DNA of 64,000 nucleotides, from IMG/VR virus record IMGVR_UViG_3300037245_003639; one strand, written 5' to 3'. This DNA is from a virus. The notes beneath the pieces were generated by a model. It made no database searches, was not told where the DNA came from, and saw only the letters and a list, made by a program, of their open reading frames with translations. A program made the translations under genes and the position numbers. Numbering within the stretch: position 1 is the first letter of the stretch; every line of letters begins with the position of its first letter. Shown one piece after another: positions 21,675-59,024 of the stretch.

Positions 21675-21705
21675 TTTTTATCAAAACCCGTGTCGAAGTG
21701 TCAAA
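21675..21705 (-). promoter_or_regulatory. Candidate sigma70-like promoter upstream of the giant gene: TTGACA-N17-ATAAAA with TG
   Basis: The minus-strand sequence TTGACACTTCGACACGGGTTTTGATAAAAAT lies about 100 nt upstream of ATG 21583. Confidence 0.3.
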
Positions 21706-23116
21706 TCTGGAATGGTAACTGAAGTTTTTTCTTCGGTTTTATTTCTAGTTCTAACCTTAAGAGTTTTTCCCTGGTAAAGTTCAAGTCAGTCTTTAGGTCC
21801 AATTCCTTTTCCTTTCGAATCAACTGGCTAGACAACTTATCAAAGTTTATTCTTCTTGTAGTTGCTTGTGGAGAAGTAATAGTCCCCACCTGACCTGCTG
21901 GTCCTGACTTTATTCCACCTCCAGGAGCAACTGAGTGAGTAGGAGGTTGATCACCCATTTCCGGCGTAGGGGGTTGCCCTGGAACTTCAGCCTCTGGTTG
22001 TCCTGTTTCTGGTGGAGATTGAAGGCGCCCATAACCCTGTTGCGTCAATTCATCCGTCACGGTTTGAAGATCAGCCAGAACTTTTACTAAATCGCTCAAA
22101 AACTCCAGATCAAGTTGGTCTTTTTGTGCCAACATAGATTGGGACACAGAAGTTATAGCGTCCAATGCGTCCTGTAATTTCTGAATCTCATTTTGCCCAG
22201 CCAATTTCATGCAGCCTTGATCTGAGCACATGACATCAGTCTCAGCCGCAATTCTTAGCAATTTCGGTAGCCGCTGTCCTATATCAGCCACTTTTGCAAG
22301 AAAGTCCTGGGGATCTATTACTTCTGTGACACCGCAATCTGAGCAAGCCGGGTTGACAACGAAACTGTTCTCGATGAACTTGATGCCGTAGTTGTATTCA
22401 TAGGCTTTATCACTGACTGCATAAGTATTTGTTTCACCTTTTTTACACTGACAGAGAGGACATTCATCTTCATCGCCATGTTCATGGTATTTGCATTTCT
22501 GTTTCTTGGCTTCGATCTGCCGAGTTTTTCTCTCTCGAATATGCTCACAATACTGGTCAGGAGTCTCTGCTTTATTGTGGCAGATAGAGCAGATAGAATA
22601 CTTGACTTGGCATCCCATTGAAGTTCCCATGATATATTCTTCTTTGATACCACGGGCCAATTGGGGATAGGCTTCGGCATCCACCCGAGCAATAATCATG
22701 ATGCCTTTACGATTTTCATCCCACCAAGAATGAACGACTTTACCTCGGGCAGCTTCGGCATCAGCGTTATTGTGGTTTGTGAAAACCGGAACTCCTACAA
22801 ATGTAGATGTGGCTTCCTTTAGTTCGGTATATCCAAACCAGTCACCGTTATCGTTCATCTCATCTGCTTTGATGGCAAAGCATTTGACGAATAGAGAGTC
22901 AGGGTGAGATTTGATTTCTGCTTCAAGATCGAAACGAGTAGCGTCACTATCCGTTCCCATCTCAGCCTCTTTATTGGATGCCGTGATTATCCGCAATGTA
23001 GCAGCTAGAGCTTCCTTATCCGCTTCAACTGCCTGATCTTTGAAAAACGAATATCTTGTCGGCGTATTGAGGAGCTTTGGTTCTATGAATATGAATTGGG
23101 CTATTTTTTCGAACAT
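21701..23116 (-). CDS. Cys-rich protein in the structural operon, function unknown (471 aa)
   Basis: It carries a cluster of at least ten Cys residues with CxxC spacing (CSICHNKAETPDQYC, ECPLCQC, ACSDCG and others). The C-terminus is Pro/Gln-rich. Confidence 0.55.
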   Translation of the reverse strand: MFEKIAQFIFIEPKLLNTPTRYSFFKDQAVEADKEALAATLRIITASNKEAEMGTDSDATRFDLEAEIKSHPDSLFVKCFAIKADEMNDNGDWFGYTELKEATSTFVGVPVFTNHNNADAEAARGKVVHSWWDENRKGIMIIARVDAEAYPQLARGIKEEYIMGTSMGCQVKYSICSICHNKAETPDQYCEHIRERKTRQIEAKKQKCKYHEHGDEDECPLCQCKKGETNTYAVSDKAYEYNYGIKFIENSFVVNPACSDCGVTEVIDPQDFLAKVADIGQRLPKLLRIAAETDVMCSDQGCMKLAGQNEIQKLQDALDAITSVSQSMLAQKDQLDLEFLSDLVKVLADLQTVTDELTQQGYGRLQSPPETGQPEAEVPGQPPTPEMGDQPPTHSVAPGGGIKSGPAGQVGTITSPQATTRRINFDKLSSQLIRKEKELDLKTDLNFTREKLLRLELEIKPKKKLQLPFQI

Positions 23117-23117
23117 A

Positions 23118-26834: not shown

Positions 26835-26835
26835 G

Positions 26836-27243
26836 TTAGCCCTTTACATGCTTAGGTATATCTATTCCCATTAGCTCGTTCTTTTGGTAGTTTCCTGCAT
26901 TCTTCGGCATTGGGACGCCCCACATATCTGTGGCGTGAGAAAGAGCACCCTTCAATGATTCAAAATACTTACCTGACGGGGAATAGGCTTTCTTCTTGGG
27001 GTCTTTCGGCATTCGCTTAACCCCAGCAAAAAAAGATTTTCCATAACGCTTGGAAACAGCAGGGCCAACCACTACGTAATAGGGATGGCCTGACTCGTGA
27101 TCAAAACCTTCCCATCTGAAATAAGAACCAGGTAAAATCTTCTCGAATTTTACTTTTGCATCTTTAGATTTCTTGCCGTATCGTTCTTCCCAACGAATAT
27201 GTCTTTCTTTTAGCCGTCGCCGGCCCGCGATGATAGTTTTCAT
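26836..27243 (-). CDS. Small basic protein (135 aa)
   Basis: The RBS is GAGGGTG. It overlaps the upstream gene in an ATGA arrangement. Confidence 0.5.
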   Translation of the reverse strand: MKTIIAGRRRLKERHIRWEERYGKKSKDAKVKFEKILPGSYFRWEGFDHESGHPYYVVVGPAVSKRYGKSFFAGVKRMPKDPKKKAYSPSGKYFESLKGALSHATDMWGVPMPKNAGNYQKNELMGIDIPKHVKG

Positions 27244-29675
27244 TGTTGAAACACCCTCGAAGATGCTTGTTTGTTGTATTCGGTCACCGAGAAATCACCG
27301 GGAGTCTGCCCAAAGCTTTGTCCCAGATACGACTTAAGTCGTCCGAAATATTTCCCGTAATCGCGGTGACAGTTTTTTAGTCTTCCTTCCTCGTCAACCG
27401 AGAAGAGATAGACATTATGTCTGTGTCCATTACCATTAGAAGATGCGTGTTTCTGTGGCCCTTTCATCAAAGTTTGGGTATAACTAGATACAGTCTGCTT
27501 CACTGCCTGTGGAGATTCCTCAATAGCTTTATCATCAAACCTCAATACGCTCCATCCTCGTTGAGCTAACAAATTGTCTCTTTCCTGATCGTCTAGCTGT
27601 TGCTCTGGCTGTCCGTGCCAAATCTCGCCATCACATTCAATCGCTAATTTGATTGGAGGTATGGCGAAATCCAGCAAGAAGGGTTTGCCTCCCTTGGGAT
27701 TCTCTATGGGAAACTGGGCTTTGATAACTTGTTGAGCGTTGATACCAAGATTAGACATCACATCAGTTAGCATGCCAGCCATGGACTGTTCGATACGGGT
27801 TAGCTTGACCATGGGACTCATGGCTGCCATTTCCTCTGGGTCCATTTCCTGACCTTTGCCACCTTTGCCCTTTTTCATTACCTTGCCACCTTCAGCAGCC
27901 GGTGACATTGGCATTCCTCCGCCCATGCCCATATCTCCGCCAGGCATTCCTCCGCCCATGCCCATATCTCCACCAGGCATTCCACCTGGGGCCATGCCAC
28001 CCATCTCGCCACCAGCGCCACCGGCCATTCCACCAGCACCCATTCCGCCCATGCCGCCCATGGCTCCTGCTCCTGCTCCGCCAAGCATGCCACCTGCCGG
28101 ACCCATCTGAATCTGTTCATAACGCTGACGTTTAACTTCCTGGTCATAGTCTAGATCCATTTCCTCCATGAGTGTTTGGGTAGAAATGACTTGTTTATCG
28201 TGAAGTTGCATCAACTTCTCATACCATTGATTCTTGTCTTTCAGTTGCAAGTCATTCCATTTGATAGTCGGATACAAGAAGACCGGCTCGCCAACTTCAG
28301 CGCTGGCTTCTTCGTCGATGAAACCTTGCATTTCCGCGATAGGTTTGAAGATGTTCTCTTCTGCCCATTCGGCCAAAGTATGACGCCAAGACTCGATACG
28401 ACGGATAAGTGTTTCGACGCCAACCTGAGCACTTTGATATCCAGACATCTCGCCGTTGAGCAAAGACTGGTTCAACATAAAGCCATCAAGAATCTCTTTG
28501 CCAACGTATTCCATTTCCTGAGTGACCTGTAGAATCTTGCCAGTTGCCCCATACCACTCGTATTCAAAGTTATGGTGTGTAACAATGGTAAGATTCGGGT
28601 CGTTAGCAGTTGCTGCCAATTGCTGTTGGACATCAGCAATGTCCGCGCTGGTGGCAGGACGGTTATCGCTACCAATCTTGACAACTCTCACTGGAATAAT
28701 CAGTCTCTCAGCGACAATCCAGTTAGCAGTCATGATTTTGGTTTTGTATGCCAGAGTCGTAAACAAACGACGAATCAACGACGATCCATAAGTGCCATAA
28801 GGAACTGGCATATGTCGGAGGTGAGAAACTGTCCTGTTCGATAGCGGAATTGGTTTATTCTGTAAGACCAGACTTTTGACATAATCTGGGATGCGGTCAT
28901 AGACTACCTTGGGTTGCTTGTAAAAGACAATTCGCTTCAGTTCTTCGTCGGGAACCAGGACTACTGCGGGCTCATCCGCTAAGACCGACTGCTGAACTTC
29001 AATCCAGTCAGGATTAAGAACAATCAATCGTTTGAATGAGCCACCCGGATGGTCGCATTGCTCACCAGAATCGGGGTCAACACCTCTGCCCTCACAAACT
29101 GGACATTCCACGTCAGTATGGATAAAGACATCTCCGAGCATGAAATATTCAGAGGCAATCATCTTGAATTTCTCATTAAGTTTAAGACGTTTGACTACGT
29201 GATGTTCAAAGAACTTCAGGACTTTACGACTGGTACATTCTAACTTGAAGCCATTCATAGGGAAGCGACTGTAGAAGTCGATGGCAGCAGCAACTTTAGG
29301 TTCATTTTCGTAGAAGAAACGACACCATTGATAGATTTCACGTCTACGGGATGCAATTTGCCAGTTCTGGGGAGTATGTAATGGAGAGAACCACATAGGG
29401 TTCGTCATCATATTACTAACGCCAGAAGCCTGAGCCATTTTTACCCAGGCATCGGGAGCCATTGCATATTGAGTGCTAGCGTATTTGAAATTGGGATCGT
29501 AATATGGGAAAAGAGCTTGGCTGTCTACAGCTCGCTCAGCATCAAGTTGTCTAATGCGATGTTCCGAAGCCATCTTTGGTGGCATGGCATTGGGATCTTT
29601 ATATGTATCTCCCATCACGATTGGCTGATGCCATTCGGGATCATCGGGAAGAAGTATATTGCGGCCTTGTAGCAT
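27240..29675 (-). CDS. Large structural protein (811 aa), portal-like by size and position (hypothesis). It has a Gly/Met-rich linker and a C-terminal DUF559/Vsr-like endonuclease domain.
   Basis: The C-terminal region PFLLDFAIPPIKLAIECDGEIWHGQPEQQLDDQERDNLLAQRGWSVLRFDDKAIEE matches the DUF559 or very-short-patch-repair-like PD-(D/E)xK fold pattern (VDF...IEVDG..H.......D..R...L...GW.VLRF). A (GGM)n linker precedes it. There is a CPVCEGRG...C zinc knuckle mid-protein. Confidence 0.6.
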   Translation of the reverse strand: MLQGRNILLPDDPEWHQPIVMGDTYKDPNAMPPKMASEHRIRQLDAERAVDSQALFPYYDPNFKYASTQYAMAPDAWVKMAQASGVSNMMTNPMWFSPLHTPQNWQIASRRREIYQWCRFFYENEPKVAAAIDFYSRFPMNGFKLECTSRKVLKFFEHHVVKRLKLNEKFKMIASEYFMLGDVFIHTDVECPVCEGRGVDPDSGEQCDHPGGSFKRLIVLNPDWIEVQQSVLADEPAVVLVPDEELKRIVFYKQPKVVYDRIPDYVKSLVLQNKPIPLSNRTVSHLRHMPVPYGTYGSSLIRRLFTTLAYKTKIMTANWIVAERLIIPVRVVKIGSDNRPATSADIADVQQQLAATANDPNLTIVTHHNFEYEWYGATGKILQVTQEMEYVGKEILDGFMLNQSLLNGEMSGYQSAQVGVETLIRRIESWRHTLAEWAEENIFKPIAEMQGFIDEEASAEVGEPVFLYPTIKWNDLQLKDKNQWYEKLMQLHDKQVISTQTLMEEMDLDYDQEVKRQRYEQIQMGPAGGMLGGAGAGAMGGMGGMGAGGMAGGAGGEMGGMAPGGMPGGDMGMGGGMPGGDMGMGGGMPMSPAAEGGKVMKKGKGGKGQEMDPEEMAAMSPMVKLTRIEQSMAGMLTDVMSNLGINAQQVIKAQFPIENPKGGKPFLLDFAIPPIKLAIECDGEIWHGQPEQQLDDQERDNLLAQRGWSVLRFDDKAIEESPQAVKQTVSSYTQTLMKGPQKHASSNGNGHRHNVYLFSVDEEGRLKNCHRDYGKYFGRLKSYLGQSFGQTPGDFSVTEYNKQASSRVFQQ
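27911..27990. repeat. 33-bp in-frame tandem repeat, 2.3 copies, encoding GGDMGMGGGMP
   Basis: The sequence gcattcctccgcccatgcccatatctccgccag is directly repeated. Confidence 0.6.
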
Positions 29676-29688
29676 AATGTAACCTCAC

Positions 29689-37093: not shown

Positions 37094-37669
37094 CTATGTT
37101 ACTCCCCTCATAATCTCATCCAGGGGTGTAAAGACTACCTTCTCATATCTTACGCCCCCTGGATGGATGTTTCCTATAATAAACGCACGGATATCATTCA
37201 CATCTCTATCCAAGGTTACTATTACTTCATTGCCCGTTGTAGGCGCCACAAATGCATAGTGTGGTTCTACAGTGCGGCGGCCTGCATAGTAGCCATGTCG
37301 ATTTGTATATTCGAAGGAAACCACTTCTGCTTTATCCATGGCATCGTACAGAAGTTCTTGAGATGACTGGTACTGGATCTCACGAGTTCCTTCTGGAATG
37401 CCTAATAACTCGCTTCCAGTGGGAATTTCCTCTCGCATTTCATCGATCTCAGTAGGAACCGGGTGTCTTCCTTTTGGAGTTTTAGGTTCTTCATCTGGTT
37501 TCTCTACCTCATCCACCAAATAATCATTCAGATTATCCTCATTGACGATCCCGGGTGTATCCGGCGTATCAAATGTGCTGGGTTCATCATTCCCCCAATC
37601 CACATTCCGGATTTCATCCCTCCAATATTGCGATCGCTTACGAAGTTGTGGACTGCGTAGTTTGAGCAT
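37094..37669 (-). CDS. Hypothetical protein (191 aa)
   Basis: ORF. Confidence 0.5.
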   Translation of the reverse strand: MLKLRSPQLRKRSQYWRDEIRNVDWGNDEPSTFDTPDTPGIVNEDNLNDYLVDEVEKPDEEPKTPKGRHPVPTEIDEMREEIPTGSELLGIPEGTREIQYQSSQELLYDAMDKAEVVSFEYTNRHGYYAGRRTVEPHYAFVAPTTGNEVIVTLDRDVNDIRAFIIGNIHPGGVRYEKVVFTPLDEIMRGVT

Positions 37670-37671
37670 TA

Positions 37672-38040
37672 TTACACCTTGAAAATTACCTCTATCTCTT
37701 TGCCGTCCTTATCTGTTATAAACTCTATTTTGTGTCCAACTCGTATATTGTTCTTGTTAAAAAACCCCGCATTAGCTTCCACTGCCATAATACAGTCACC
37801 GTTGCTACGAACAACCCTGGTAGACATGGGGACAATCGGTTTGATCGCGGTAATCTCATTCTGGTTATTTACAAACGCCACATCCAATGGGATATAAGTG
37901 TTTTTCCCCCAAAAGTTGGCTTCCAAAATCCTTGGAAACTTAAACAGCATGCCTTTATTCTTAGGAAGTTCATTCCTATACATTAGCCCTTGGGCCAAAG
38001 CCGAAGGGGTTTCTGCTACTTCTATCGAAAGTTTGGCCAT
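37672..38040 (-). CDS. DUF192-like protein (122 aa)
   Basis: The sequence GLMYRNELPKNKGMLFKF...NTYIPLDVAFVN...G fits the DUF192 pattern (GLM.R..L....GMLF.F....M.NT.IPLDI.F.D). Confidence 0.55.
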   Translation of the reverse strand: MAKLSIEVAETPSALAQGLMYRNELPKNKGMLFKFPRILEANFWGKNTYIPLDVAFVNNQNEITAIKPIVPMSTRVVRSNGDCIMAVEANAGFFNKNNIRVGHKIEFITDKDGKEIEVIFKV

Positions 38041-38390
38041 TAATCACCCTCCCAGTCGAAAAGAATGTTTTTAGTGTAGAGTTCTCTTGTTACATCATCG
38101 AACTCACCCGCTGGGACATCTATCATAACAAAATGACTTTTCGCGGAACTCAGAATAGGAAAACCGCTGTTTTCCACCCAGTCGGTTATTTTTTCATAGT
38201 TGTTTTCTGTAATCCATTCTTCGGCATCTACAACGTAAGGAACGCTTCGTTTGAGAGCCGGATTATAACGAAATCGCATCTCTCCTCCACGGCCTCGCAG
38301 AACTTTCTGCGTATGAGTGTCATACCACTGAAAGTCCTGAATAACTTTCTGCTTGACGCGTTTGTTTGTGGCTCTAAGTAGAATTTCCAT
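38040..38390 (-). CDS. Hypothetical protein. Corrected start at MEILLRATNKR.
   Basis: The ATG overlaps the upstream stop (ATGGAAATTCTACTTAG). The ORF-track start would overlap by 134 nt. Confidence 0.4.
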   Translation of the reverse strand: MEILLRATNKRVKQKVIQDFQWYDTHTQKVLRGRGGEMRFRYNPALKRSVPYVVDAEEWITENNYEKITDWVENSGFPILSSAKSHFVMIDVPAGEFDDVTRELYTKNILFDWEGD

Positions 38391-38841
38391 ATCTAAAAGC
38401 TCGTTGTACCCAGTTATTGTATTCTCTATCTGCCAAAGTAAATGCCACTTTACCTTCATGCTGTGAGGCTCTGTGAATAAACTCATAGTTGAAATCAAAG
38501 TCGTCATCTTCGAACGATGATTTTTCAGAATGCAAGATGATATTCCGGATAATCGTTTTCCCTTTGTCAGTTATCTCCACAGTTCTGACGGGTATTCCTT
38601 CCGCCCCTACTCGACTCATGGGTTTATTCTTCACCATGCCCTTCGATGTCAGAGATGCTATAACCATTGGGTCCACATCTTCTGGGACCACCAGATAACC
38701 ATATGAATCCTTTTCTCCCCGCCAAACAGAAAAAAGTGCTTTCGCTTCCTTGTCGGTGATAGGTGAACGAGGAATGATCTGAATTGATTGAAGTGGAAAA
38801 ACGTTAATAAAGTCAAGCAGCGACTGTGCTTTCTTCTTCAT
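38374..38841 (-). CDS. Hypothetical protein (155 aa)
   Basis: ORF. Confidence 0.45.
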   Translation of the reverse strand: MKKKAQSLLDFINVFPLQSIQIIPRSPITDKEAKALFSVWRGEKDSYGYLVVPEDVDPMVIASLTSKGMVKNKPMSRVGAEGIPVRTVEITDKGKTIIRNIILHSEKSSFEDDDFDFNYEFIHRASQHEGKVAFTLADREYNNWVQRAFRYGNST

Positions 38842-39643
38842 CTTTGGCTCCTAACTCTAGAAAATTCTCTACCTCTTCATTCATCAGTAATTTCCCAAGC
38901 CGAAATCTCTTAAACATATCAAGAGCTTTCACAGCATCTATCTTCAAAATACGCACCATTTCCTTGACGATCCTTTCATGAGTAATCATCTCAGGAAGGA
39001 GATGTAAATTCTTTTTCATTTCATTACGCAGATTGGCCTCGATAAAGAAGTCATAAGTAACAGCAAAGCGAATCGCACGCAGGATTGCTAATGGGTTATA
39101 TTTGATAAGCATGTCCGGCGGCAGTACAGAAATAATCCGTTTGCGTTTCAGGTCTCTAACAGCTTTACCCAGCGGATCCAATAGTTCATCTTTGACAGGC
39201 GAGTAAATCAAAGTGTTGATTGTAAAATCACGACCATAAATATTGTTCATCAAAGGAACATCGTCTACGTTTGACTGATGGAGATAATCCTTCACTTCTT
39301 GATTGTACATATAGGATTGGGCGCTTTTGCCTTGAAATTCTACTTTAATGGAACCCTGCTCGGACTTATACTCCAACACTGCTGTGCCAGTTCTTTGATA
39401 GAACTTCGGCATAGTATTCAATTCTTCTGATGCAAACAAACCGCCCAACTGAATGGCCTGCTCATGATATGCTGAAGCAACATCAATATCATTTGTTTCC
39501 CAACGGCGACCCATAGCCACAGAACGACAATAACCACCGACTATGAACAACGAATCTATACCATACAACTGAGTGAAGTGCCGCAGATGAGCAATCACTT
39601 CATCGATTAGAATCTCTTTGTTGATAATTTCTTCTTTGGTCAT
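38813..39643 (-). CDS. tRNA nucleotidyltransferase or poly(A) polymerase family protein. A minimal head-domain enzyme that may add CCA.
   Basis: GGYCRSVAMGRRWETNDIDVAS resembles the GGxVRDxLLG...DxD nucleotidyltransferase motif. GRDFTINTLIY resembles the RRDFTINA motif of class II CCA-adding enzymes. The protein is only 276 aa. Confidence 0.7.
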   Translation of the reverse strand: MTKEEIINKEILIDEVIAHLRHFTQLYGIDSLFIVGGYCRSVAMGRRWETNDIDVASAYHEQAIQLGGLFASEELNTMPKFYQRTGTAVLEYKSEQGSIKVEFQGKSAQSYMYNQEVKDYLHQSNVDDVPLMNNIYGRDFTINTLIYSPVKDELLDPLGKAVRDLKRKRIISVLPPDMLIKYNPLAILRAIRFAVTYDFFIEANLRNEMKKNLHLLPEMITHERIVKEMVRILKIDAVKALDMFKRFRLGKLLMNEEVENFLELGAKDEEESTVAA

Positions 39644-40419
39644 TATGGTATCGTAAGCAAGTGCCGCGATTTGTACGGCGAATCCGTCTTCATATCATTG
39701 AAACTGTAAGGATCACGATTCAAATCTTGCCAAACGTAGTAATATCCCTGAGCGTCATATTCAGGGTTGTACCGAGTTTGGTTGCGCTTAGACCTGCCTC
39801 GCATATCAAAATACTCCTGATCCTCCTCCCATTCCCAGACCCGCTCTTTCATGGGTAAATCAAGGTTGGCCCATGGACCTGAAATCTGAGCCATCTTATG
39901 GACTTTCATATAACGGCCCAAAACTTTGGAACGATATATTTCTCTCATTATCAGATGATGCAATAAACGAATCTCGATATATTTCCTATTGAACTTGGCA
40001 ATCAGTTTCTCATGGACTTCGGCTGCATCAATATGAAAAAGAGCCTGAAGATCGTCGGTGATTTCATTTAGGTCACTGAAATTACGTGAAAACAGATAAG
40101 ACTTCTTAACGGCATTTAAGAACAATAAGTTATCAAGACCTCCGTTATTCCCTGCTCCGTTCTCTACAATGACAACTGCCAGACGACCAAGGTCAATCCA
40201 GTCTTCCCATAGATGCTCTTTTAATTCAGATAAAGCTGCTTCGATATGCTCTTTACATTCTTGAGGAGAGTGTGATGAAATTTGTTCATCCCCAATATCC
40301 ATAAACCATTCATCCATACGATGTTGGATATCGAGGGCTCTAAGCTCTTGTAGCAACAGGTCTTGTGGGGATGCCTGGCGACTTTCTTGTTTCACCTGAG
40401 ATTTTTGCATGTTGAACAT
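39643..40419 (-). CDS. Hypothetical protein (258 aa)
   Basis: Strong RBS: AGAGGA plus a 6-nt spacer. Confidence 0.5.
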   Translation of the reverse strand: MFNMQKSQVKQESRQASPQDLLLQELRALDIQHRMDEWFMDIGDEQISSHSPQECKEHIEAALSELKEHLWEDWIDLGRLAVVIVENGAGNNGGLDNLLFLNAVKKSYLFSRNFSDLNEITDDLQALFHIDAAEVHEKLIAKFNRKYIEIRLLHHLIMREIYRSKVLGRYMKVHKMAQISGPWANLDLPMKERVWEWEEDQEYFDMRGRSKRNQTRYNPEYDAQGYYYVWQDLNRDPYSFNDMKTDSPYKSRHLLTIP

Positions 40420-42758: not shown

Positions 42759-44669
42759 CTATCCTATTTTGCCGAACTTGCGATTTAAGAACTGCCATTG
42801 TTGAGGAGCATATTGTCCCCTGCCAATGTTCCAACTCTGTCCACCCACCGCTGCATCTCTACTTTGTGGCATATTGACTACGCCTCCTTTAGCGTAACCA
42901 GCATAATGTTGCTCCATTGCAACTCCACAGGCCCCTGCCAATGAGTCACAGCAGTCATCCGTGGTTGCAAGGGCATCGTCATCAGGTTGAATTTTAAAGC
43001 CCAAAGGTCCGTAAACACGCTTTAGACACTTTAATTCCATTGCCATCAATTCAGCATCGTGGCCTTTGTAAGGTAAAGCAAGCTGATGGTTTACCAGTAA
43101 GTGTTCAAGATGATTGTAAATCTGTATTTTGTATTGCTTGCGGAAGGGCGTCATCCGAGTTGGAATTCCCTTCGATCTTAACTTTTGAATACTCGCCATG
43201 GAATTCCAACTATCGTAAGTTACCAAAGCAAATCGGAACCGTTTTGCTAAATCTATGACATATTCGTCTACCTCGTGAACACTAATAGATCTGTCAGGAT
43301 AAGGATGCCATACTTTCACATGATCAACAACAAACAGTTTGAATTTCTCTTTTTTGGGAGGCCCGATTTCACTTTGGTTTGTTCTGATACGTTCCTCGAC
43401 ATGCAGAACGGTTAAAGCGTAATTATGTGAAGTAGCGGCCGGGTCCAAGTGAGCAAAATAGACCACTCCAGGGATGCCCTGGATATGCGCTCCACTATTA
43501 AGCCTGCGACCCATTTCAACTGCTTCTTCTATATAAATGTCTGGAATGAACTTCTCTCCTGCCGTTCCCGAAAATTCTGCTCCAAATTCCATCAAGAACT
43601 CATTAGGGTTCATGAATTTGAATTCTGAGCGTAAAGAAATTTCGCTAAACATCTGGTTTACTTTCCAGGTTGGCAGTTGGTAAGCGAGACGGTTGTGGTT
43701 TTTTGGAGCCGTATTGTATAGATGGAAAAGCATACCCTCTTCACCACGGGGCGATGAAATACTGATGATTTTACTATCCAAGAGAGGAACATCTTCACCG
43801 TTCTCATCTTTGTAAGTTTTGGTCGGATGCTTGAAGTCTGCGGTGGCGGGAGTTAGAGCAGAATAAATACGGTCACCAGATGTGGCTCCACCAGTCGTCT
43901 TAAATGATGCTACTTCGTCCAGCAACAAACAATAGATACGTTTACCCAGCAGACCTTCGCTGTTAGAGTGACCAGACATAATACAAATAGAACCCGGCGT
44001 TTGAGCCGTGGGTAATCCTTGCTTCACCAAATCAGCGTTATTCTTCTTATCTTCAGGGGTTAAGAACCACAATCTGTCAGCCTCAACTTTGCCTATTTTG
44101 CTCTTGAAATATTCCGAACCTTGCATTCGTGATTTAATTTCGTTGTACAAAATTCGCGCCTGATCTGCCGATGTAGCAACTGTGATGATGTAGATGGGAT
44201 TACCCGGAGCCAAACCGTAATAGCCAAAGGGACTTCCACTGGGACATTCCAATAGTTTCATGCACTCATAGAGAGCAATCATAGATGTCATAAAGTCCTT
44301 GCCAGAACGACGACCCAGGACCAGAACAAGCTCTCTAAACAATGCATTCGAGTGATATTTATCAAGAACTAACTGCATTTTGTTGGTAAACAACATCTCG
44401 ATTTCTTCCGGAGTCAATTTGATATGTTCATTTCCTGATTGCCCTCGGTAGAAAGATTTCAGGATAATCTGTTGCATTGGAAAGAGGTTAATTGGCCTGA
44501 CTCCAACCTTCCCGATGGCTTTCATATTGAGGTATTTCTTTGAATAGCAGAATTCAATAATATCAGGAATGTATGGTTCTGATGTGTCAGATGAGGAGAG
44601 GGCTACCTGCTCCTTTATCTTAGATACAACTTCACTTATACTAATTGCACTATCTTCGTCTTTTGACAT
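42759..44669 (-). CDS. terL: Terminase large subunit
   Basis: Walker A-like VLGRRSGKD and Walker B-like CLLLDEV are present. The C-terminal nuclease has the acidic residues FAHLDPAATS, VVDHV and DDCCDSLAG. The size is 636 aa. Confidence 0.75.
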   Translation of the reverse strand: MSKDEDSAISISEVVSKIKEQVALSSSDTSEPYIPDIIEFCYSKKYLNMKAIGKVGVRPINLFPMQQIILKSFYRGQSGNEHIKLTPEEIEMLFTNKMQLVLDKYHSNALFRELVLVLGRRSGKDFMTSMIALYECMKLLECPSGSPFGYYGLAPGNPIYIITVATSADQARILYNEIKSRMQGSEYFKSKIGKVEADRLWFLTPEDKKNNADLVKQGLPTAQTPGSICIMSGHSNSEGLLGKRIYCLLLDEVASFKTTGGATSGDRIYSALTPATADFKHPTKTYKDENGEDVPLLDSKIISISSPRGEEGMLFHLYNTAPKNHNRLAYQLPTWKVNQMFSEISLRSEFKFMNPNEFLMEFGAEFSGTAGEKFIPDIYIEEAVEMGRRLNSGAHIQGIPGVVYFAHLDPAATSHNYALTVLHVEERIRTNQSEIGPPKKEKFKLFVVDHVKVWHPYPDRSISVHEVDEYVIDLAKRFRFALVTYDSWNSMASIQKLRSKGIPTRMTPFRKQYKIQIYNHLEHLLVNHQLALPYKGHDAELMAMELKCLKRVYGPLGFKIQPDDDALATTDDCCDSLAGACGVAMEQHYAGYAKGGVVNMPQSRDAAVGGQSWNIGRGQYAPQQWQFLNRKFGKIG

Positions 44670-50382: not shown

Positions 50383-52635
50383 TTATCCGCAGCGAGAGTG
50401 CAGACAGACAGGACACTTCAGACAAGCCGCATCTGATTGCATCTCCGTCTTCTTGCCCTTCTTAGCACATTTCTCGCAATAACGGTCCTCGGAAACAGCC
50501 AGAATCTCATCCACGGTCAAATAGTGTTTCTTAAGAATCCGTCCAACGGCTTTCGAAAAACTGGTCAATTTGTCGCTGCTCTTATCGATTTGCTGCACAA
50601 TATACTTCGGGAGGATGCCATGACGAAGCTCCAGACTGAAGCGCCGAGTCTCCAAGCCCAATCTGGGGTCAATTTCTTCTTCAACTATGTTTAGATTATC
50701 AATCAGAATCTCACCAGATTCGTCCAGAAGCGAGTAATGTCTTTTTTTCCTCTTCATTACCTGGCCTTGTGACGGCAGATTTTCGTAACCACCATTAACA
50801 GCAAAAATTTCATAAGGCTGGTTGTTCTCAAGTCCTACGATAATATGCCACTGCATGCCCTCGGCCGTCGTTCTGTAAATATCACAGGCAACAGTTCTGG
50901 GTCGAGGTCGAGAGAGATTAGCTCCATAGTTAGTGTTGGTTTTGTCGTCCGACGTAAGCACTTGAGATGTTTTGCACTCGTCTCGATAAATGGTGATTCC
51001 TTTACAACCTTTTTTCCAAGCCCGAAAATAAGCTTCAGCGATATTTTTCTTAGTCGCATTGTTAGGCATGTTGATTGTTTTGGAGATTCCCGAATCGACG
51101 TTCTTTTGGAATGCTGACTGCATATCTACATGCTGTTTCCAATCAACTTCTCGGGCTCCATCCCGATCTTTGTCTATGGCACATCTGAAATACATTTCAT
51201 CTGCTTGCGGATGCGACATCTTGTAATTACCAGTGTTATCTGAGCGATATGTAGTAGGGGCATAGATGGGTTCAGCCGAACTGGAACATCCTGCTATAAT
51301 GGCAATTGAACCTGTGGGCGCCAGCGAGAGGGTTGTGGCATTGCGACGGTAATCCAATTCTCGATACTTACAAGATTTTGGAGTGCCACGTTCTTCAGCC
51401 AACTCAACCGATTTCTCGTGAGTTACATCTTTGAAGAATTTAGACATCTTTTCCGCATAAACGATAGAAGGTTCTTCTCCATAAGCCATATGCTTCTTCA
51501 ACAATAGATCTGCCCAACCCATGATGCCCAAACCCACGGGGCGGTTGTCCTGAGCCCATTGCTTAAATTCTTCGGTGGGGAATTGATTCTTGTCGATAAC
51601 GTTGTCCAAAAACTGGAAAGATGCGCGAATGTCATCCCTTAGTTCATTCCAATTTACGTCATCAAAATCAGGAATGTAATATTTTGAGACATCGATAGAA
51701 CCTAAATTACACGATCCCCATTGCGGTAGCATTTGTTCTCCGCAGGGGTTTGTGGCCGTAAGCTCTTGTCCACTATGTTTGTAAGGCCCATTGTTAATGG
51801 CGTTGTAGAACAATATTCCTGGGTCACCATTGTTCCAGGAATTTGCTACAATTAGATCAAACACGTCATGAGCTTTGATGCTTTCGTAAACTTCGCCGCC
51901 GAAGCGTAAATCAAAAAGACCATCCTTTTCAACGGCCTGCATAAACTCATCAGTTATTAGAACAGAGATATTGAAATTGGATATAAACTTATCCAACATA
52001 ATGTTTGCATGTTCATGAGTATGACCGTTCAGTTTGTCGAAGTGATTGAAGAAATCTTCTTTGAGTTGGTATTTCAGGGCGAACTCGCGTTGTTTACAGG
52101 TAATGAATGTATGAATGTCAGGATGATCTACCCGCAGCACGCCCATATTAGCCATGCCTCGAAATCCCGCTTGAGTAATCGAATTCATAGCCTCAGATAC
52201 AACAATCATATGACGAACGGGGCCGCACGCTTTATAGTGAGTAGAGCCAAATACTCTATCGCCTGAAGGTCTGATTTGCGAGAAGTCAACTCCGCATCCG
52301 CCCCCACGGCGGGCAATATGCCCAAAGTTGGCTATGTTTTCACACATACCAATCCAACTATCTTCTGGGCTTTTGGTTACAAAACACGCCAGCAATCCAC
52401 CAACTGGATTGCCAGCGTTTACAAGACAAGGGGAGTTTGGAAGAAACCTGGTGGAGTAAAGCAGTTTCGAGATTTTCTTTTTGAACTCTTGGGATTCGTG
52501 GCCACAAACTGCCTTCGTTACCCTTTGAACTAACCCATCCCAGTCTTCAATGTTATTGCCATCATCATCCTTACGATAATATCGCGTGGCGGCGACGTTA
52601 CGCGCCGCGGCGTTGAGTGGACACTCTTTTCCCAT
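50383..52635 (-). CDS. nrdJ: Ribonucleotide reductase, class II type (NrdJ-like)
   Basis: The active-site motifs are NPCGEQMLPQWGSCNLGSIDVS and LAPTGSIAIIAGCSSSAEP. The C-terminal Zn ribbon is CEKC...CLKCPVC. The corrected start is MGKECPLN, preceded by GAGGAGA and a 7-nt spacer. Confidence 0.8.
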   Translation of the reverse strand: MGKECPLNAAARNVAATRYYRKDDDGNNIEDWDGLVQRVTKAVCGHESQEFKKKISKLLYSTRFLPNSPCLVNAGNPVGGLLACFVTKSPEDSWIGMCENIANFGHIARRGGGCGVDFSQIRPSGDRVFGSTHYKACGPVRHMIVVSEAMNSITQAGFRGMANMGVLRVDHPDIHTFITCKQREFALKYQLKEDFFNHFDKLNGHTHEHANIMLDKFISNFNISVLITDEFMQAVEKDGLFDLRFGGEVYESIKAHDVFDLIVANSWNNGDPGILFYNAINNGPYKHSGQELTATNPCGEQMLPQWGSCNLGSIDVSKYYIPDFDDVNWNELRDDIRASFQFLDNVIDKNQFPTEEFKQWAQDNRPVGLGIMGWADLLLKKHMAYGEEPSIVYAEKMSKFFKDVTHEKSVELAEERGTPKSCKYRELDYRRNATTLSLAPTGSIAIIAGCSSSAEPIYAPTTYRSDNTGNYKMSHPQADEMYFRCAIDKDRDGAREVDWKQHVDMQSAFQKNVDSGISKTINMPNNATKKNIAEAYFRAWKKGCKGITIYRDECKTSQVLTSDDKTNTNYGANLSRPRPRTVACDIYRTTAEGMQWHIIVGLENNQPYEIFAVNGGYENLPSQGQVMKRKKRHYSLLDESGEILIDNLNIVEEEIDPRLGLETRRFSLELRHGILPKYIVQQIDKSSDKLTSFSKAVGRILKKHYLTVDEILAVSEDRYCEKCAKKGKKTEMQSDAACLKCPVCLHSRCG

Positions 52636-54453: not shown

Positions 54454-54642
54454 TCACTCATACAACTCCATTTTTTTCTTACGTCCCTTGCCAACACATT
54501 TAGCTTGGAGCCGCTTTTGATGCGCCTCCCGGGCCTTTACGTCCTCGATAGTGGGGGAGAAATGCGAAAAATGCAGTCTCATCCACGCTTCGGAGGGAGC
54601 TTTAGCCATATTATAATGGATTAGTGCTTCTGTCAACCTCAT
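54454..54642 (-). CDS. Small basic protein (62 aa)
   Basis: The ORF overlaps the DHH gene stop by 4 nt. Confidence 0.4.
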   Translation of the reverse strand: MRLTEALIHYNMAKAPSEAWMRLHFSHFSPTIEDVKAREAHQKRLQAKCVGKGRKKKMELYE

Positions 54643-55763
54643 TTTTCAGTTATTTTCTGGAATTTCCGCTCGATATTCGTCTTTACCAAGTCCCAGAGGC
54701 CCGACATCTCGTCGGCTGGCATCGATGATACGTCAAAAACGTTGATCTGGACCTTGGCCCCTCCGATACCATGTTTGGCTCCACCGTTACCCTGACCGAA
54801 GAGTTCGTCCAAAAGATTCTGAGCATCCAGAGTTGAACTTGAAGTTCGCACACTTCCTCGCACAGCACCTTCCACAATAGCATATACCACAACTGTCTGA
54901 ATGCCCTGCAATCTCATGAACTTATCTGCCAAATAAGGAATACAATCGCTCTTGGAATCTTCCAAGAACCCTAAACCCGCAATCAAACTTGGGGGTTGAT
55001 AACTTTTGTTCTCCCAGGCGGTACGTTCCGCATCAAACACGTAAGGTGATAGTTCATAATTGACGATTTTATGGAATTTTTCGTCACTAAAATGACGGCT
55101 CAAAACTTTGTATGCCTGAAAATCATCATCTGTCGTGTTTTCTGTCAAAAAGTCCAGTGTGTCTGTTTTGATACCAACTGCTAAAGATGTGGCAATCTCT
55201 CTCATGTTGTCTGCATCAGGATCGAAACACTGAATTTGCTCATCCTCCACTTGTATGCAAAGCGAAAGCATCAGATCAACAATCAGGGTCGCACATGCTC
55301 CAATTTCATCATGAATCGAGAGGACGCCTCTGGCCGGGACATTTTTGTGATGATCCACCACAATATCAGGATCAAATGGAATGCTCATGTTATTTTGGCC
55401 GCCAACACAATCTACGAAAACAACAACTGGTTTCTCTTTGGCGTTGATGAACTCATTCTCGATGGTTTTTGTCCAAGGGTTGATCGGAATCTTCAAGACG
55501 GTTTTCATCGCTCGATTTTGTGGGTGAGAGATTTCTCCGCAGTAATACATTTTGATCGATTCTGCGCCCAAGAACGATAGAATATGGAACATTCCATACG
55601 CAGAAGCCAGTGAATCAGGATCGGGATTATCATGCGAACAAACTATAAACTGTCTATGTCGTTGCTCTTCAATAAATTTGCAAAAGGCATCTTTCTTGGC
55701 TTTGACCTTTTTGTTGCCAATTGGGGCGATTAGATTTTTGTGTTCTTTATTACTATCGGACAT
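54639..55763 (-). CDS. DHH-DHHA1 family phosphoesterase, NrnA or RecJ-core like
   Basis: Motifs present: VCSHDNPDPDSLASA (DHH motif I), VFVDCVGG, VVDHHKN (DHH), and Gly-rich GNGGAKHGIGGAK (DHHA1 GGGH-like). Confidence 0.7.
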   Translation of the reverse strand: MSDSNKEHKNLIAPIGNKKVKAKKDAFCKFIEEQRHRQFIVCSHDNPDPDSLASAYGMFHILSFLGAESIKMYYCGEISHPQNRAMKTVLKIPINPWTKTIENEFINAKEKPVVVFVDCVGGQNNMSIPFDPDIVVDHHKNVPARGVLSIHDEIGACATLIVDLMLSLCIQVEDEQIQCFDPDADNMREIATSLAVGIKTDTLDFLTENTTDDDFQAYKVLSRHFSDEKFHKIVNYELSPYVFDAERTAWENKSYQPPSLIAGLGFLEDSKSDCIPYLADKFMRLQGIQTVVVYAIVEGAVRGSVRTSSSTLDAQNLLDELFGQGNGGAKHGIGGAKVQINVFDVSSMPADEMSGLWDLVKTNIERKFQKITEK

Positions 55764-55772
55764 GACTGCTTT

Positions 55773-56201: not shown

Positions 56202-57269
56202 TTATACATAGATGACCTCGTGGGCCTCGGTTAGATCAGGGACTTCCCATTTATTCAATAGCTTGTTGATAACGGTTTCGGGGACTGCATTTTTTCGGGC
56301 TTTGTTTTGCTTCCATAGGTTATCGTGATCGGTTTCAACATAGACTATACAGATACGGGCTCCGTACTGCCGAAGCAACGTGAGACATTTATTACGAACC
56401 ATTTTGCTTACGTTAGTAGCATTCCAAACAAAATCCCGCCTGGCACCCAATAGACGTTTCGCTTCATCCTTGGCCTGCCGGATGACCTTTGACTGATTAT
56501 CCGCAGGTCGGACTCGCAGACTCTCTCTGATTGCGTCAAGAGAAACAACTGGTAGACCATCACAGTTGGCATGGATATAATGGCTTTTCCCTGAGCCCGG
56601 TAATCCTGACATAACTATCACTGTCGGTCTAAGCGGCGGACGAGCTTGGCTGCGGATATCTTGGCCCAGGTTGAAATGAGCAACCCGGGCATGATCAGAA
56701 GCAAATGGGTAAGAAGCTCCCCAGCAACCAATCTCCTGACAGAATTTCCGGAATATATGAACTTTCTCAACACTTTCGCCCCCATCAGATAGACAATGCC
56801 GACCTTCCGCATCCGCCTCAGCCAATATAGCCAGCAAGTCAGTTCTGACGGACAAACTGATTTGTGCCACGTAACTTTCCATGTCAGATGCATCCAACAG
56901 ATGCAAAGGGCGCATATGATATTTGACCAGATTGCAAACATCTTCGCGGGCTCTGAAGTCGGCTCCGGCTTCCCAAAGAATGCGACGAGCCTTTATAGTC
57001 CCTTTGAGAGCATGGTTTTTGCTGGTAATGCGCCCATCAACAACATCGAATACGTCAGGCTTGGCACAGTCATGCAAGATTGCTGCCGTTAGGAGAATAT
57101 CCTGAATCTCATTTGGTTGTGCCTGATAAGCGCGGAGTCCACGTAGAGCCGAGCATACTAACTGCGTATGAACCCAAACATCGCCTTCTCCGTGATATTC
57201 GGGACTTTGCTCACATTGACGCATCGCATCAACCCAGGGAGCATCCAGATTATTCGGGTCGAGCAACAT
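56202..57269 (-). CDS. HD-Pnk: an N-terminal HD phosphohydrolase fused to a C-terminal P-loop polynucleotide kinase
   Basis: The HD motifs are HGEGDVWVH, ILHDCAKP, KYHMRP and EADAEGRH. The Walker A motif is VMSGLPGSGKSH. Confidence 0.75.
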   Translation of the reverse strand: MLLDPNNLDAPWVDAMRQCEQSPEYHGEGDVWVHTQLVCSALRGLRAYQAQPNEIQDILLTAAILHDCAKPDVFDVVDGRITSKNHALKGTIKARRILWEAGADFRAREDVCNLVKYHMRPLHLLDASDMESYVAQISLSVRTDLLAILAEADAEGRHCLSDGGESVEKVHIFRKFCQEIGCWGASYPFASDHARVAHFNLGQDIRSQARPPLRPTVIVMSGLPGSGKSHYIHANCDGLPVVSLDAIRESLRVRPADNQSKVIRQAKDEAKRLLGARRDFVWNATNVSKMVRNKCLTLLRQYGARICIVYVETDHDNLWKQNKARKNAVPETVINKLLNKWEVPDLTEAHEVIYV

Positions 57270-57978
57270 TACATTTGCATCCTTCGTTTATCTGGGTCTC
57301 GATACGTCTAATCTGCGAAGTCCAACAATCGATAGCCAAATAGCCACTTAGCGCATCAGCCTCGACTAACAGTTTGATTACTTCGATGGCTTGCATGCTA
57401 CCGACCATGCCAACCGCTGCTCCTAATACTCCTCGCTCAACATCTGGAGTACCGCAGACGCTGGCCTCAAATATGCACCACAAACAAGCTGTCTGGCCCG
57501 GGACAATAGCCCAGACTCTTCCTTCTGTTTCTGTCACTCCGCCGTAAACCCAGGGTTTGCGGAGTTTGATGGCCCAATCGTTGATGATAAAACGACTATC
57601 CATATTGTCTGTGCAATCGGCAATTACATCTGCATCCGCCAGCAACTCCTCTGCGTTGCCATCTGTCAGTCGTTTAGATTCCAATCGCAGCCGAATCGTT
57701 GGGTTAATTCTTAATAAACGAACTCCTGCTCGTTCAACTTTGAATTTACCCACGTCAACGCTGTCGTAAAGAACTTGACGAGGCAAATTGCTTGATGCAA
57801 CTCGGTCATCGTCAATGAGTGTTACGTTGACGCCTGAGCGAACCAAAGACGAGCTAACTACGCAGCCCATTCCTCCGCAACCAACGATGGCTACTCGTTT
57901 TTCACGCAGTTTAGTATGACGCTTCGCTCCCAGAAGAGCTATTTGCCGATTGTATCGGTCATCGGTTATGCGGCCCAT
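57250..57978 (-). CDS. E1-like adenylyltransferase of the ThiF/MoeB family
   Basis: Motifs present: RYNRQI, VAIVGCGGMGC, DDDRVASSNLPRQ, DCTDNMDSRF, plus the Zn motif CLWC...GCKC. The RBS is AGGAG with an 8-nt spacer. Confidence 0.75.
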   Translation of the reverse strand: MGRITDDRYNRQIALLGAKRHTKLREKRVAIVGCGGMGCVVSSSLVRSGVNVTLIDDDRVASSNLPRQVLYDSVDVGKFKVERAGVRLLRINPTIRLRLESKRLTDGNAEELLADADVIADCTDNMDSRFIINDWAIKLRKPWVYGGVTETEGRVWAIVPGQTACLWCIFEASVCGTPDVERGVLGAAVGMVGSMQAIEVIKLLVEADALSGYLAIDCWTSQIRRIETQINEGCKCNVARPE

Positions 57979-58754
57979 ATATCAACTCCTGGAGCCAGTT
58001 GATTTTCTACAATTGGTCGTTCCATCCAATGAGAGCCCGAATCAAGCAACTGCTGTACGAAACTGTGTCGCACAAACTTTAGTCGCTCACTGACAACTCC
58101 GTCTTCTTCCACTTTGATATATAGGCCCTCGGAGAGCCTGCTCATATCCGTCTCTGCTTTCGTGGCGTCAAACTCATGTTTGGCAGCTTCGGCTGCAAGT
58201 TCCAGGGCTAATTCCCAATCCTCACTTTTGTACAGAGAAGTTCCTACCAGCGAAAGCAGATGATCATAATCTTCGGCGGTTCCTGACCACAAAACAGGCA
58301 CGGAGATCACTGGCAATTTCTCCAGCATCGCATAACGCCGTGGAGTATCCAAAAAGACTTCTGTTTCTTTGTCGAAAATATCGAACTCCATGAAGAGATG
58401 CGGGAGCATGTCATAAAACTCGGTATGCTTAGCCTGCATCCATTCGCCGTACATAATATAGCGATTACCTAGCACCTTCCAGAAACTGTCTGCATGGCAT
58501 GGAGCCCAAGCTTTCAGCCTCGTGAAGTGGCGCTCGCGTGGACCTCCCCGCAACGCATGGCCTCGACTTTGAAGCAACAAATCACCTTTGCCATGAAAAC
58601 TGACAGCGCAATTGGCCCCGTCGAGTTTCTCTTCCACGACGATATGACGACCCTTCAAATCCACGAACGGAACCTGTGTCAGGTCTTCATCGCCTTGTTG
58701 AAGACGAGAACCTTTCAAGTGACGAGTCCTGGGATATTTGTAGAAGTCTTTCAT
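57966..58754 (-). CDS. ATP-dependent RNA ligase, Rnl2-like nucleotidyltransferase
   Basis: The N-terminal KYPRTRHL is followed by motif I EEKLDGAN (KxDGxN). The likely true start is MKDFYKYPRTRHL. The ORF-track start at 58781 is a GTG. Confidence 0.65.
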   Translation of the reverse strand: MKDFYKYPRTRHLKGSRLQQGDEDLTQVPFVDLKGRHIVVEEKLDGANCAVSFHGKGDLLLQSRGHALRGGPRERHFTRLKAWAPCHADSFWKVLGNRYIMYGEWMQAKHTEFYDMLPHLFMEFDIFDKETEVFLDTPRRYAMLEKLPVISVPVLWSGTAEDYDHLLSLVGTSLYKSEDWELALELAAEAAKHEFDATKAETDMSRLSEGLYIKVEEDGVVSERLKFVRHSFVQQLLDSGSHWMERPIVENQLAPGVDIWAA

Positions 58755-59024
58755 AATTTCATCAACCCTATAGCGTAACACTGCGGAGCCAATTTGTCAA
58801 GGTTTTTTGGCAGAACAAAAATAACGGCAACTGCCGCCAGGGTATAAAACTCAAAATTATATGGTCTTTCCTGGAATGATGACAAAAAAAGTCACCATCC
58901 GCCTCTCCAGTATTGGAATTAGACGATTTCAATGCAAGGATTTTCCTCTCACGGGCCGTAAATAAGATAACAGGACAATATCCATATAATGGTGTAAATA
59001 TTTTTCGGACTATAAGGCACAAAT

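Follow-up and report, generated by a model that had tools for sequence, protein, structure and literature searches.

The CCA-adding enzymes of class II are the standard example of a polymerase templated by amino acids. The Asp and Arg of their motif D act as a protein template that makes Watson-Crick-like bonds to CTP and ATP (PMC2532741), and both residues are regarded as all but invariant. In these enzymes the acceptor and T-arm of the tRNA are bound by the body and tail (PMC3925840). CCA-adding enzymes of phages and jumbo phages have already been described (PMC7824862; PMC7162821), and PHROGs has entries for short homologues from phages. Here we analyse a minimal relative of these enzymes, a nucleotidyltransferase (NTase) of 276 residues encoded in the IMG/VR virus record IMGVR_UViG_3300037245_003639, a stretch of 64,000 nucleotides that is called the window below. 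Judged from its sequence, this NTase has lost two hallmarks of the CCA enzymes, the body and tail that anchor the tRNA and the Asp and Arg of motif D, and it appears to be one half of a two-gene unit with a partner protein of 258 residues.

The open reading frame (ORF) of the NTase runs from ATG to stop on the minus strand, as found both in the list of ORFs and by a check of the DNA; a preliminary description of this DNA had located it correctly and had given no strand. The head domain is recognised by Pfam as PF01743 (PolyA_pol) over residues 32–170, with an E-value of 2.4e-12 and 47.7 bits against a cutoff of 23, and residues 198–252 match PF12627 (PolyA_pol_RNAbd) below the threshold (16.9 bits against a cutoff of 22). 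Two PHROG families of tRNA nucleotidyltransferases match as well (E 9e-20 and 2e-15), phrog_24229 being matched at E 2e-15. The motif and family signal is far above chance. The AlphaFold2 model, built from 38 homologues, has a mean predicted local distance difference test score (pLDDT) of 90.1 and a predicted template-modelling score of 0.85, and is disordered at residues 267–276 only. When this model was used in a Foldseek search, all 46 PDB matches at E ≤ 1e-3 were class II CCA-, CC- or A-adding enzymes or E. coli poly(A) polymerase, the top ones being class II A- and CCA-adding enzymes (E about 1e-11, TM-score on the query 0.63–0.68). The alignments comprise about 240–264 columns, with TM-scores of 0.57–0.68 on the query versus 0.37–0.54 on the targets, which suggests that the NTase spans the head and neck of the CCA/A enzymes and nothing beyond. 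On sequence and model, the protein is assigned to the class II CCA/poly(A)-type nucleotidyltransferases of the Pol-β superfamily. The preliminary description had called it a CCA-type tRNA nucleotidyltransferase, of which the family holds and the function, CCA repair, is supported only in part; it had also proposed a structural comparison with class II CCA enzymes, and the predicted model does share their head and neck fold. The competing assignment that it had named, an antitoxin-type MNT, was not seen in Pfam, PADLOC or the fold search: no match of the MNT/MenT/AbiEii type appeared in Pfam or PADLOC, and Foldseek aligned the model to MenT1 with an E-value of 0.15 and a TM-score of 0.24. RlaP (PF10127) was also considered and rejected; a Pfam scan at E ≤ 1 returned PF01743 and PF12627 only, and the RNA ligase gene lies 18 kb away.

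The residues of the catalytic centre are kept. The GGxxR...DxD and RDFTIN motifs reported earlier are indeed found in the DNA, as G36-G37-Y-C-R40 (nt 39524–39538), D52-I-D54 (nt 39482–39490) and R138-D-F-T-I-N143 (nt 39215–39232, with the reverse complement CGT GAT TTT ACA ATC AAC). D52, D54 and E102 align with D31, D33 and E74 of the A. aeolicus A-adding enzyme (1VFG), which are its catalytic carboxylates (PMC3925840). In 38 diverse members of the family, G36, R40, F103, Q104, R138, D139, F140, T141 and N143 are invariant and G37, D52, D54 and E102 nearly so. Among the alignable close homologues, 116 of 119 retain the GG pair together with all three carboxylates, and this, with the invariant motif B, argues for selection for catalysis in the family of the window NTase. 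The enzyme is predicted to be catalytically competent, holding the residues for nucleotide transfer to a 3′-OH. Motif B lacks the first Arg of the canonical RRD; an argument against CCA function that we had drawn from this loss was withdrawn, since GRD is also present in 80 full-length cellular enzymes that retain the D..R of motif D.

The change lies in motif D. Where the canonical enzymes have x-E-D-P-x-R-x-L-R-A-x-R-F, the window NTase has K181-Y182-N183-P-L-A186-I-L-R-A-I-R-F. In every pairwise and profile alignment (to 1VFG, 4WBY, 9NS2, 9KMA, 9NS4 and 6IBP), N183 (AAC, nt 39095–39097) falls on the templating Asp and A186 (GCA, nt 39086–39088) on the templating Arg. A change of this type is kept across about 120 homologues. 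Among 197 variant-type relatives, 180 have Asn in place of the templating Asp, and none has Arg at the Arg position, where A, V, I, S, L, T or M stands instead, whereas 55 canonical relatives from the same search retain RRD and DxxR, followed by a median of 212 further residues. The same contrast is given by two sets of full-length enzymes. From a scan that took a single genome for each bacterial or archaeal species, 80 enzymes were chosen for G-R-D in motif B, and all of them retain D..R and 185–325 C-terminal residues; the 36 full-length viral relatives all retain Asp..Arg and about 200 C-terminal residues. The cellular enzymes (L090–L169) are CCA-type proteins from metagenome-assembled genomes, mostly of Chloroflexota/Anaerolineae and Bdellovibrionota, and in them the Glu position of EDxxR is variable (D, E, A, N, S or H).

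The second loss concerns the binding of tRNA. The sequence alignments end at about residue 222–233 of the 404-residue B. stearothermophilus enzyme (1MIV), from which we conclude that both the body and the tail domain are lacking; the median number of residues past the shared region is 4 in the window lineage versus 212 in the canonical relatives. The curated NCBIfam models for CCA enzymes are not reached by the NTase (NF009814, 62.9 vs 290 bits; TIGR02692, 42.4 vs 438.8; NF008137, 28 vs 451), nor are those for PcnB (TIGR01942, 62.7 vs 305.65 bits; NF008634, 30 vs 702). The preliminary description had judged the protein shorter than bacterial CCA enzymes, and the difference amounts to about 130–200 residues. 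It had also supposed that a tail binding the anticodon and body was probably missing or different; the body and tail are absent, but anticodon binding is not a feature of class II enzymes, and since these domains hold the acceptor and T-arm, the missing part is a tRNA anchor rather than an anticodon reader. Its suspicion of an altered specificity is strengthened by a feature that it had not seen, namely that Asn183 and Ala186 stand in for the two templating residues across the whole family.

It had further treated the NTase as a stand-alone enzyme, a picture that the gene order contradicts. The partner gene lies directly upstream and would be translationally coupled to the NTase, the last base of its TAA stop codon being the A of the NTase ATG. 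The partner family has 165 homologues, which are on the same contigs as the NTase, and the partner stands directly upstream of the NTase in five related loci (L001, L003, L010, L011 and L013). Modelled alone with AlphaFold, the partner has a confident helical domain at residues 18–175, and its most conserved segment, residues 176–251, is disordered (pLDDT < 55). The conserved positions are W183, N185, D187, L188, E192, R193, R216-Y-N218, E220, W230 and Y249. No fold match to the partner was obtained in the PDB (best Foldseek E 0.6), and no family in Pfam, PHROG, NCBIfam or PADLOC.

The conserved partner segment recurs 130–230 residues ahead of the N-type domain in about 30 single proteins of 460–1250 residues, with phmmer E-values of 8e-16 to 2e-4 and a profile E-value of 1.3e-23. 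One of these fusions, P0161, was found to be a single uninterrupted ORF. Two fusion proteins could be placed on contigs, and both occupy the same slot, with a trypsin-like protease before and a DUF192 gene after; on the P0159 contig a terminase lies further upstream of that slot. About 230 residues before the partner-type segment, each of the 20 fusion proteins examined has a conserved HEAxH motif. At this site the window partner has V-H-E-K-L-I, in which the second His is lost, and HE is not conserved in the partner family. In the fusion proteins Pfam finds the NTase head domain only, and the source databases label them 'hypothetical protein' at most. This pattern of fusion and fission suggests that the partner and the NTase act together.

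A third gene accompanies the pair. We defined as N-type an enzyme with x-N-P-L-(A/V/I/S)-I-L-R-A in motif D, nothing past the neck and a DUF192 gene within 3 kb; the window NTase has all of these, together with the partner segment upstream. A profile search started from the DUF192 protein of the window placed a DUF192 gene within 3 kb and on the same strand in 10 of 10 N-type IMG/VR loci and in none of 36 with canonical NTases. DUF192 was near 2 of 38 other NTases, both of which are merely neighbours of an N-type enzyme. When the window, L001, L003, L004 and the P0159 contig are added, DUF192 is near 15 of 15 N-type enzymes. The DUF192 gene is an obligatory neighbour of the N-type enzymes. The DUF192 protein of the window matches two structural-genomics entries of unknown function, 3PJY and 3M7A, and no usable functional description of DUF192/COG1430/UPF0127 was found in the literature.

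A word-indexed search yielded 138 homologues of the NTase at E ≤ 1e-3, of which the 120 listed are 253–293 residues long and 47–100% identical; several are on contigs of 400–580 kb, and the exact window sequence is on a 403,172-bp JGI contig. In an exhaustive search of representatives, 7,844 matches were obtained at E ≤ 1e-3 and only 33 at E ≤ 1e-30. No close member of the family was found in 185,579 species-representative cellular genomes, where the best full-length identity was 30%. The N-type family is confined to phage contigs, and the terminase, portal and protease-like genes mark the DNA of the window as that of a phage.

The class II NTases of 80 IMG/VR loci sort into three groups. Full-length enzymes of 430–510 residues have RRD and (E/D)D..R; short enzymes of about 250–270 residues, from more than 30 of the 80 loci, have S-R-D with an intact x-D..R; the N-type group consists of the window family and 348-residue forms. 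Because the short group is very common, shortness is not unusual in phages; what is unusual is to be without the Asp and Arg. The enzymes of the short group have GG and D-D-D (examples are L019, L020, L022, L025, L026, L029, L035, L036, L039–L041, L044, L051, L054, L057–L060, L062 and L063) and no DUF192 neighbour. To our knowledge, these short S-R-D/x-D..R viral NTases are uncharacterised. Three GenBank phage enzymes, phiEa21-4 gp79 (422 residues, annotated as tRNA nucleotidyltransferase), Lak-C1 and MT835510 (unannotated), are full-length and canonical. In L038 (1–11152) a single viral contig has three paralogous class II NTases inside 11 kb: one is an ORF of at least 1873 residues that runs off the start of the locus (RRD/DD..R), and the other two are N-type enzymes of 245 and 407 residues with a DUF192 gene between them.

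Is the NTase part of a tRNA-repair pathway? The RNA ligase and HD-Pnk named in the preliminary description are both present in the window, and the HD domain of HD-Pnk resembles that of bacterial CCA enzymes (TIGR02692 positions 242–348). The joint tRNA-repair set that it had built from these genes and the NTase was not supported, as the NTase belongs to the terminase–portal block and the repair cluster lies about 17 kb upstream. The cluster makes an RNA-repair lifestyle plausible for the phage, with no specific link to the NTase. Phage-encoded tRNAs, which had been suggested as a check, were absent: ARAGORN found no tRNA gene in the 64-kb window, in L001, L003 or L004, or in any N-type IMG/VR locus, and Rfam at its gathering thresholds found nothing in the window. 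In the first 60 IMG/VR loci, tRNA genes occur within 10 kb in only three (12, 2 and 7 genes), and the tRNA arrays (L031, L034 and L065) are all beside RRD/D..R enzymes. The cluster itself (54639–58781) is tightly packed with overlapping ends and also contains a 142-residue ORF; the place of the E1-like gene, flanked by those for an RNA ligase and an end-healing enzyme, is unusual.

In two loci, L021 and L037, the DUF192 and N-type pair adjoins a canonical CCA-type NTase and an HD protein. The gene order in L021 is a 239-residue protein, DUF192, the N-type NTase, a 180-residue protein, a canonical head and neck, a 300-residue insert and the HD protein, whose C-terminus has the HEAxHAxGAxxEG segment that is common to the fusion proteins (E 1.6e-10). 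This repeated vicinity of N-type enzymes to canonical CCA-type and HD enzymes points to roles that are linked but not redundant. The canonical CCA-type enzyme of L021 (11490–15446) seems to be split into a 382-residue ORF with the head and neck (RRDFTIN, EDPLRVLRG) and a 625-residue HD ORF, the halves being separated by the 300-residue ORF, which may be a mobile gene inserted there; at the end of the HD ORF is a HEAEHAHGAEGEG segment that is also found in the NTase fusion proteins.

We propose, with a probability of roughly 55%, that the N-type enzyme is a partner-dependent RNA 3′-end nucleotidyltransferase whose nucleotide specificity is not readable from its sequence. Such an enzyme would add untemplated nucleotides to the 3′ end of an RNA. 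Its substrate choice would come in trans from the partner, possibly also from the DUF192 and WYL-like neighbours, in place of the built-in tRNA ruler, and the redesigned pocket would set the choice of nucleotide, which would depart from that of the CCA-adding enzymes or at least be enforced in another way, so that the product need not be CCA. Transfer to an RNA 3′-OH is suggested by the fact that the whole superfamily does so and by the association of the module with CCA-type and HD enzymes. Given that the tRNA anchor and the C/A-selecting residues are lost and that the partner and DUF192 are constant, the protein is probably an RNA-end enzyme of a different kind rather than an ordinary CCA-adding enzyme. 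Several points weigh against this proposal. No link to RNA metabolism is evident in the placement of the gene between terminase and portal, and a physical interaction of NTase and partner is a prediction from gene fusion and gene overlap. Only 9 of 32 short sister clusters retain GG and the three carboxylates, the typical changes being GD or GE for GG and K, R or N for the first Asp. In L013 the site is dead (GT; K, E, Q), yet the partner, DUF192 and the gene order are kept, so that the conserved role may not be catalytic. Finally, in the E. coli CCA enzyme with the templating Arg changed to Ala, accurate CCA addition in vitro persists through a tRNA-dependent backup (PMC2532741), and loss of the template by itself is therefore no exclusion of CCA addition.

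This last observation favours the view that the NTase is an ordinary tRNA CCA-adding or repair enzyme which works with the RNA ligase and HD-Pnk and in which the primer or the partner enforces the order C-C-A. CCA repair is possible but no longer the best reading, and we consider it unlikely. It agrees with the nearest sequence and fold relatives, which are CCA/A-adding enzymes, with the PHROG label, with the healing and sealing set in the same window and the CCA-enzyme-like HD of its HD-Pnk, and with the occurrence of CCA-adding enzymes in jumbo and huge phages (PMC7824862; PMC7162821). However, both templating residues are changed and stay changed in the lineage, while every cellular enzyme checked retains them; in poly(A) polymerase the same Arg-to-Ala change randomises incorporation (PMC2532741), and when the human enzyme was put under selection in vivo, with Asn and Ala among the residues allowed at the templating positions, only Asp and Arg came back and no substitute was accepted (PMC11784652). 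There is also no body or tail to hold a tRNA, the scores are far under the curated CCA equivalog cutoffs, tRNA genes are missing from the window and every N-type locus and their arrays stand beside canonical-type enzymes only, and the presence of a canonical enzyme next to the N-type one in L021 and L037 argues for non-redundant roles.

The degenerate sister clusters and L013 fit with a protein that is mainly non-catalytic, in which the NTase fold would be retained for binding or scaffolding, for instance in a subunit that binds RNA or nucleotides or in a protein associated with the head, with vestigial catalysis. The sister clusters keep their length and fold-defining motifs, the partner resembles a degenerate copy of the domain with the HEAxH conserved in the fusion proteins, and a head-associated role would suit a gene between terminase and portal. 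We nevertheless find this improbable for the window family, with its complete set of catalytic residues in 116 of 119 members and its invariant motif B; among the long (≥320 residues) variant-type relatives, mostly C-terminal fusions, 35 of 46 are catalytically intact too. An offensive effector was also weighed, that is, a packaged or early enzyme which would tail host tRNA or other RNA with non-CCA nucleotides in the manner of MenT or poly(A) polymerase and so cause host translation shut-off or RNA decay. In related phages the domain forms the C-terminus of proteins of 800–1250 residues that are encoded in the head-gene region beside a trypsin-like protease. Such a layout recalls head-packaged multidomain proteins. 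The redesigned base pocket would permit tails other than C and A, and the MenT toxins are reported to block aminoacylation by tRNA 3′ extension (PMC11541572). Yet packaging has no evidence behind it, the fold is not similar to that of MenT (Foldseek E 0.15), no defence or toxin family is matched, and the window enzyme is a separate small protein, all of which makes this effector very improbable. What probability remains is left to substrates outside these four readings. One may speculate further, and we do so with more doubt than conviction, that the N-type enzyme, partner and DUF192 protein form an unrecognised phage system on a CCA-enzyme scaffold, with a nucleotide pocket rebuilt from Asn and an aliphatic residue in place of Asp and Arg and with substrates recognised in trans, which makes a non-CCA RNA 3′ tail and may be delivered from the capsid. 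Capsid delivery is considered because of the terminase–portal position and the giant fusion forms. If this were true, the tail might inactivate host tRNAs or protect or mark phage RNAs.

Table 1. Features of the NTase locus and its surroundings, in window coordinates.
Feature	Position	Strand	Basis or remark
Protease-like gene	21701..23116		phage hallmark
Portal	27240..29675	-	phrog_16240 E 8e-40, residues 97-454
WYL-like protein, 191 aa, weak assignment	37094..37669	-	Pfam WYL E 0.0014, below cutoff; PADLOC WYL E 2e-4
DUF192 protein, 122 aa	37672..38040	-	PF02643 E 3.5e-27
Conserved small gene, 155-aa ORF	38040..38507	-	syntenic in L001, L003, L010-L013
Conserved downstream gene, 155 aa	38374..38841	-	overlaps NTase 3′ end by 29 nt; syntenic homologues
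Predicted N-type minimal class II NTase, 276 aa, head and neck only	38813..39643	-	ORF, PF01743, AlphaFold2 model, Foldseek
Motif D variant (K181 to F)	39065..39103	-	alignments
Motif B, G137-R138-D139-F-T-I-N143 (RRDFTIN without first Arg)	39215..39235	-	alignment
E102, third catalytic carboxylate, in conserved EFQG	39338..39340 (GAA)	-	alignment to E74 of 1VFG
Motif A, G36 G37 x x R40 ... D52 x D54, NTP/metal binding	39482..39538	-	alignment
Partner gene, 258 aa	39643..40419	-	1-nt overlap with NTase start
Partner residues 176-251, W183-x-N-x-D-L-P...R216-Y-N-P-E220...W230...Y249	39667..39894	-	most conserved segment; invariant columns
Terminase	42759..44669		phage hallmark
DHH phosphoesterase	54639..55763	-	
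HD-Pnk	56202..57269	-	HD and AAA_33
ThiF/MoeB-type E1-like adenylyltransferase	57250..57978	-	PF00899 E 2e-60
RNA ligase	57966..58781	-	PF09414 E 4e-30

The genes around the NTase (Table 1) form a block that is conserved as an insertion between terminase and portal in a clade of phages of 400–580 kb. From ribonucleotide reductase through terminase to portal, the window is collinear gene for gene with L001, L003, L010 and L011. In LR745208.1, a 485-kb uncultured phage whose TerL is 27% identical, the stretch that was read shows terminase and portal without an NTase block between them, which suggests that the block is clade-specific. Homologues of the gene at 38374..38841 follow the NTase directly in L001, L002, L003, L010, L011 and L012, and a weak similarity (E 0.002 in a small database) links it to the gene that follows the fusion NTase of L004. 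The next ORF, at 38040..38507, overlaps it by 134 nt (38374..38507); homology in this ORF begins at about residue 36–40, so that the real start is probably internal. Neither of these two ORFs matched a Pfam, PHROG, NCBIfam or PADLOC family. The WYL-like gene is syntenic in L001, L003 and L010–L013, and its L003 homologue also has a weak WYL match; a C-terminal extension of the L004 DUF192 protein was considered as a homologue of this WYL-like protein and rejected, as BLAST gave no confirmation.

Genes for a ribonucleotide reductase (763 residues, PF02867 E 3e-91) and a peptide deformylase (242 residues, PF01327 E 5e-23), at 50383–53461, adjoin the terminase block on its upstream side and have the same order in L001 and L003. 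The portal protein contains an HNH-endonuclease-like stretch at residues 618–743, which may be an inserted or fused endonuclease domain; its L003 homologue has DUF559/MTES_1575 matches. Very large ORFs (1820, 1238 and 974 residues) without a family match are located at 16148–32613, where the AT skew is -0.18 to -0.25 versus about -0.01 to -0.16 elsewhere in the window. A LAGLIDADG gene (PF03161 E 6e-19) and an HNH endonuclease gene were found at 13303–14295 and 53761–54444. The LAGLIDADG homologue of L011 (18041–18754) has a different site, between the 974-residue gene and the portal, as expected of mobile homing endonucleases.

In the literature we found no description of the double replacement of the templating residues, of the partner and fusion relation or of the DUF192 linkage, and no paper that characterises a truncated phage class II NTase. 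A natural and well-conserved lineage that keeps the catalytic residues while its template and tRNA anchor are gone would be a test case for how nucleotide and substrate choice can be rebuilt, and DUF192 gains a first specific genomic partner. Short phage "tRNA nucleotidyltransferases" should, with caution, not be annotated as CCA repair enzymes. A non-CCA tail, if it is made, would represent a new phage tool for RNA manipulation and possibly a reagent for RNA 3′-end labelling.

How does the window NTase compare with the known systems? With the class II CCA-, CC- and A-adding enzymes (1VFG/4WBY, T. maritima 3H37, 1MIV) it has the head and neck fold in common, at E about 1e-11 to 1e-10 and TM-scores on the query of 0.57–0.68, and it resembles them in motif A, the third carboxylate, the R-D of motif B, the motif C region and the LRAxRF helix. 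It differs from them in the absent body and tail, in Asn183 and Ala186, and in its dedicated partner and DUF192 gene. PcnB (3AQK–3AQN) is of the same superfamily and has the same head and neck fold but, unlike the window NTase, keeps EDxxR and a C-terminal RNA-binding region; in poly(A) polymerase the Arg of EDxxR is essential for A specificity (PMC2532741). MenT, AbiEii and MNT proteins are likewise small NTases of the Pol-β fold, some of which extend tRNA 3′ ends, but they are of another family.

The phage-borne enzymes are closer in setting. The full-length phage CCA enzymes (phiEa21-4 gp79, Lak megaphage; PMC7824862) are class II NTases that are 26–31% identical to the window NTase, but they have 417–475 residues, RRD and (E/D)DPLR, and no DUF192 neighbour. 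The short viral S-R-D NTases consist, like the window NTase, of head and neck only, whereas they retain the templating Asp and Arg and have neither partner nor DUF192. The fusion proteins (P0155, P0159, P0161 and others, 460–1250 residues) share with the window NTase x-R-D-F-T-I-N, x-N-P-L-x-I-L-R-A, the absence of body and tail and the same genomic slot; they differ in that a single polypeptide carries both HEAxH and W-x-N-L-D-L-P...R-Y-N-P-E, whereas in the window the corresponding segments are on the separate 258-residue protein.

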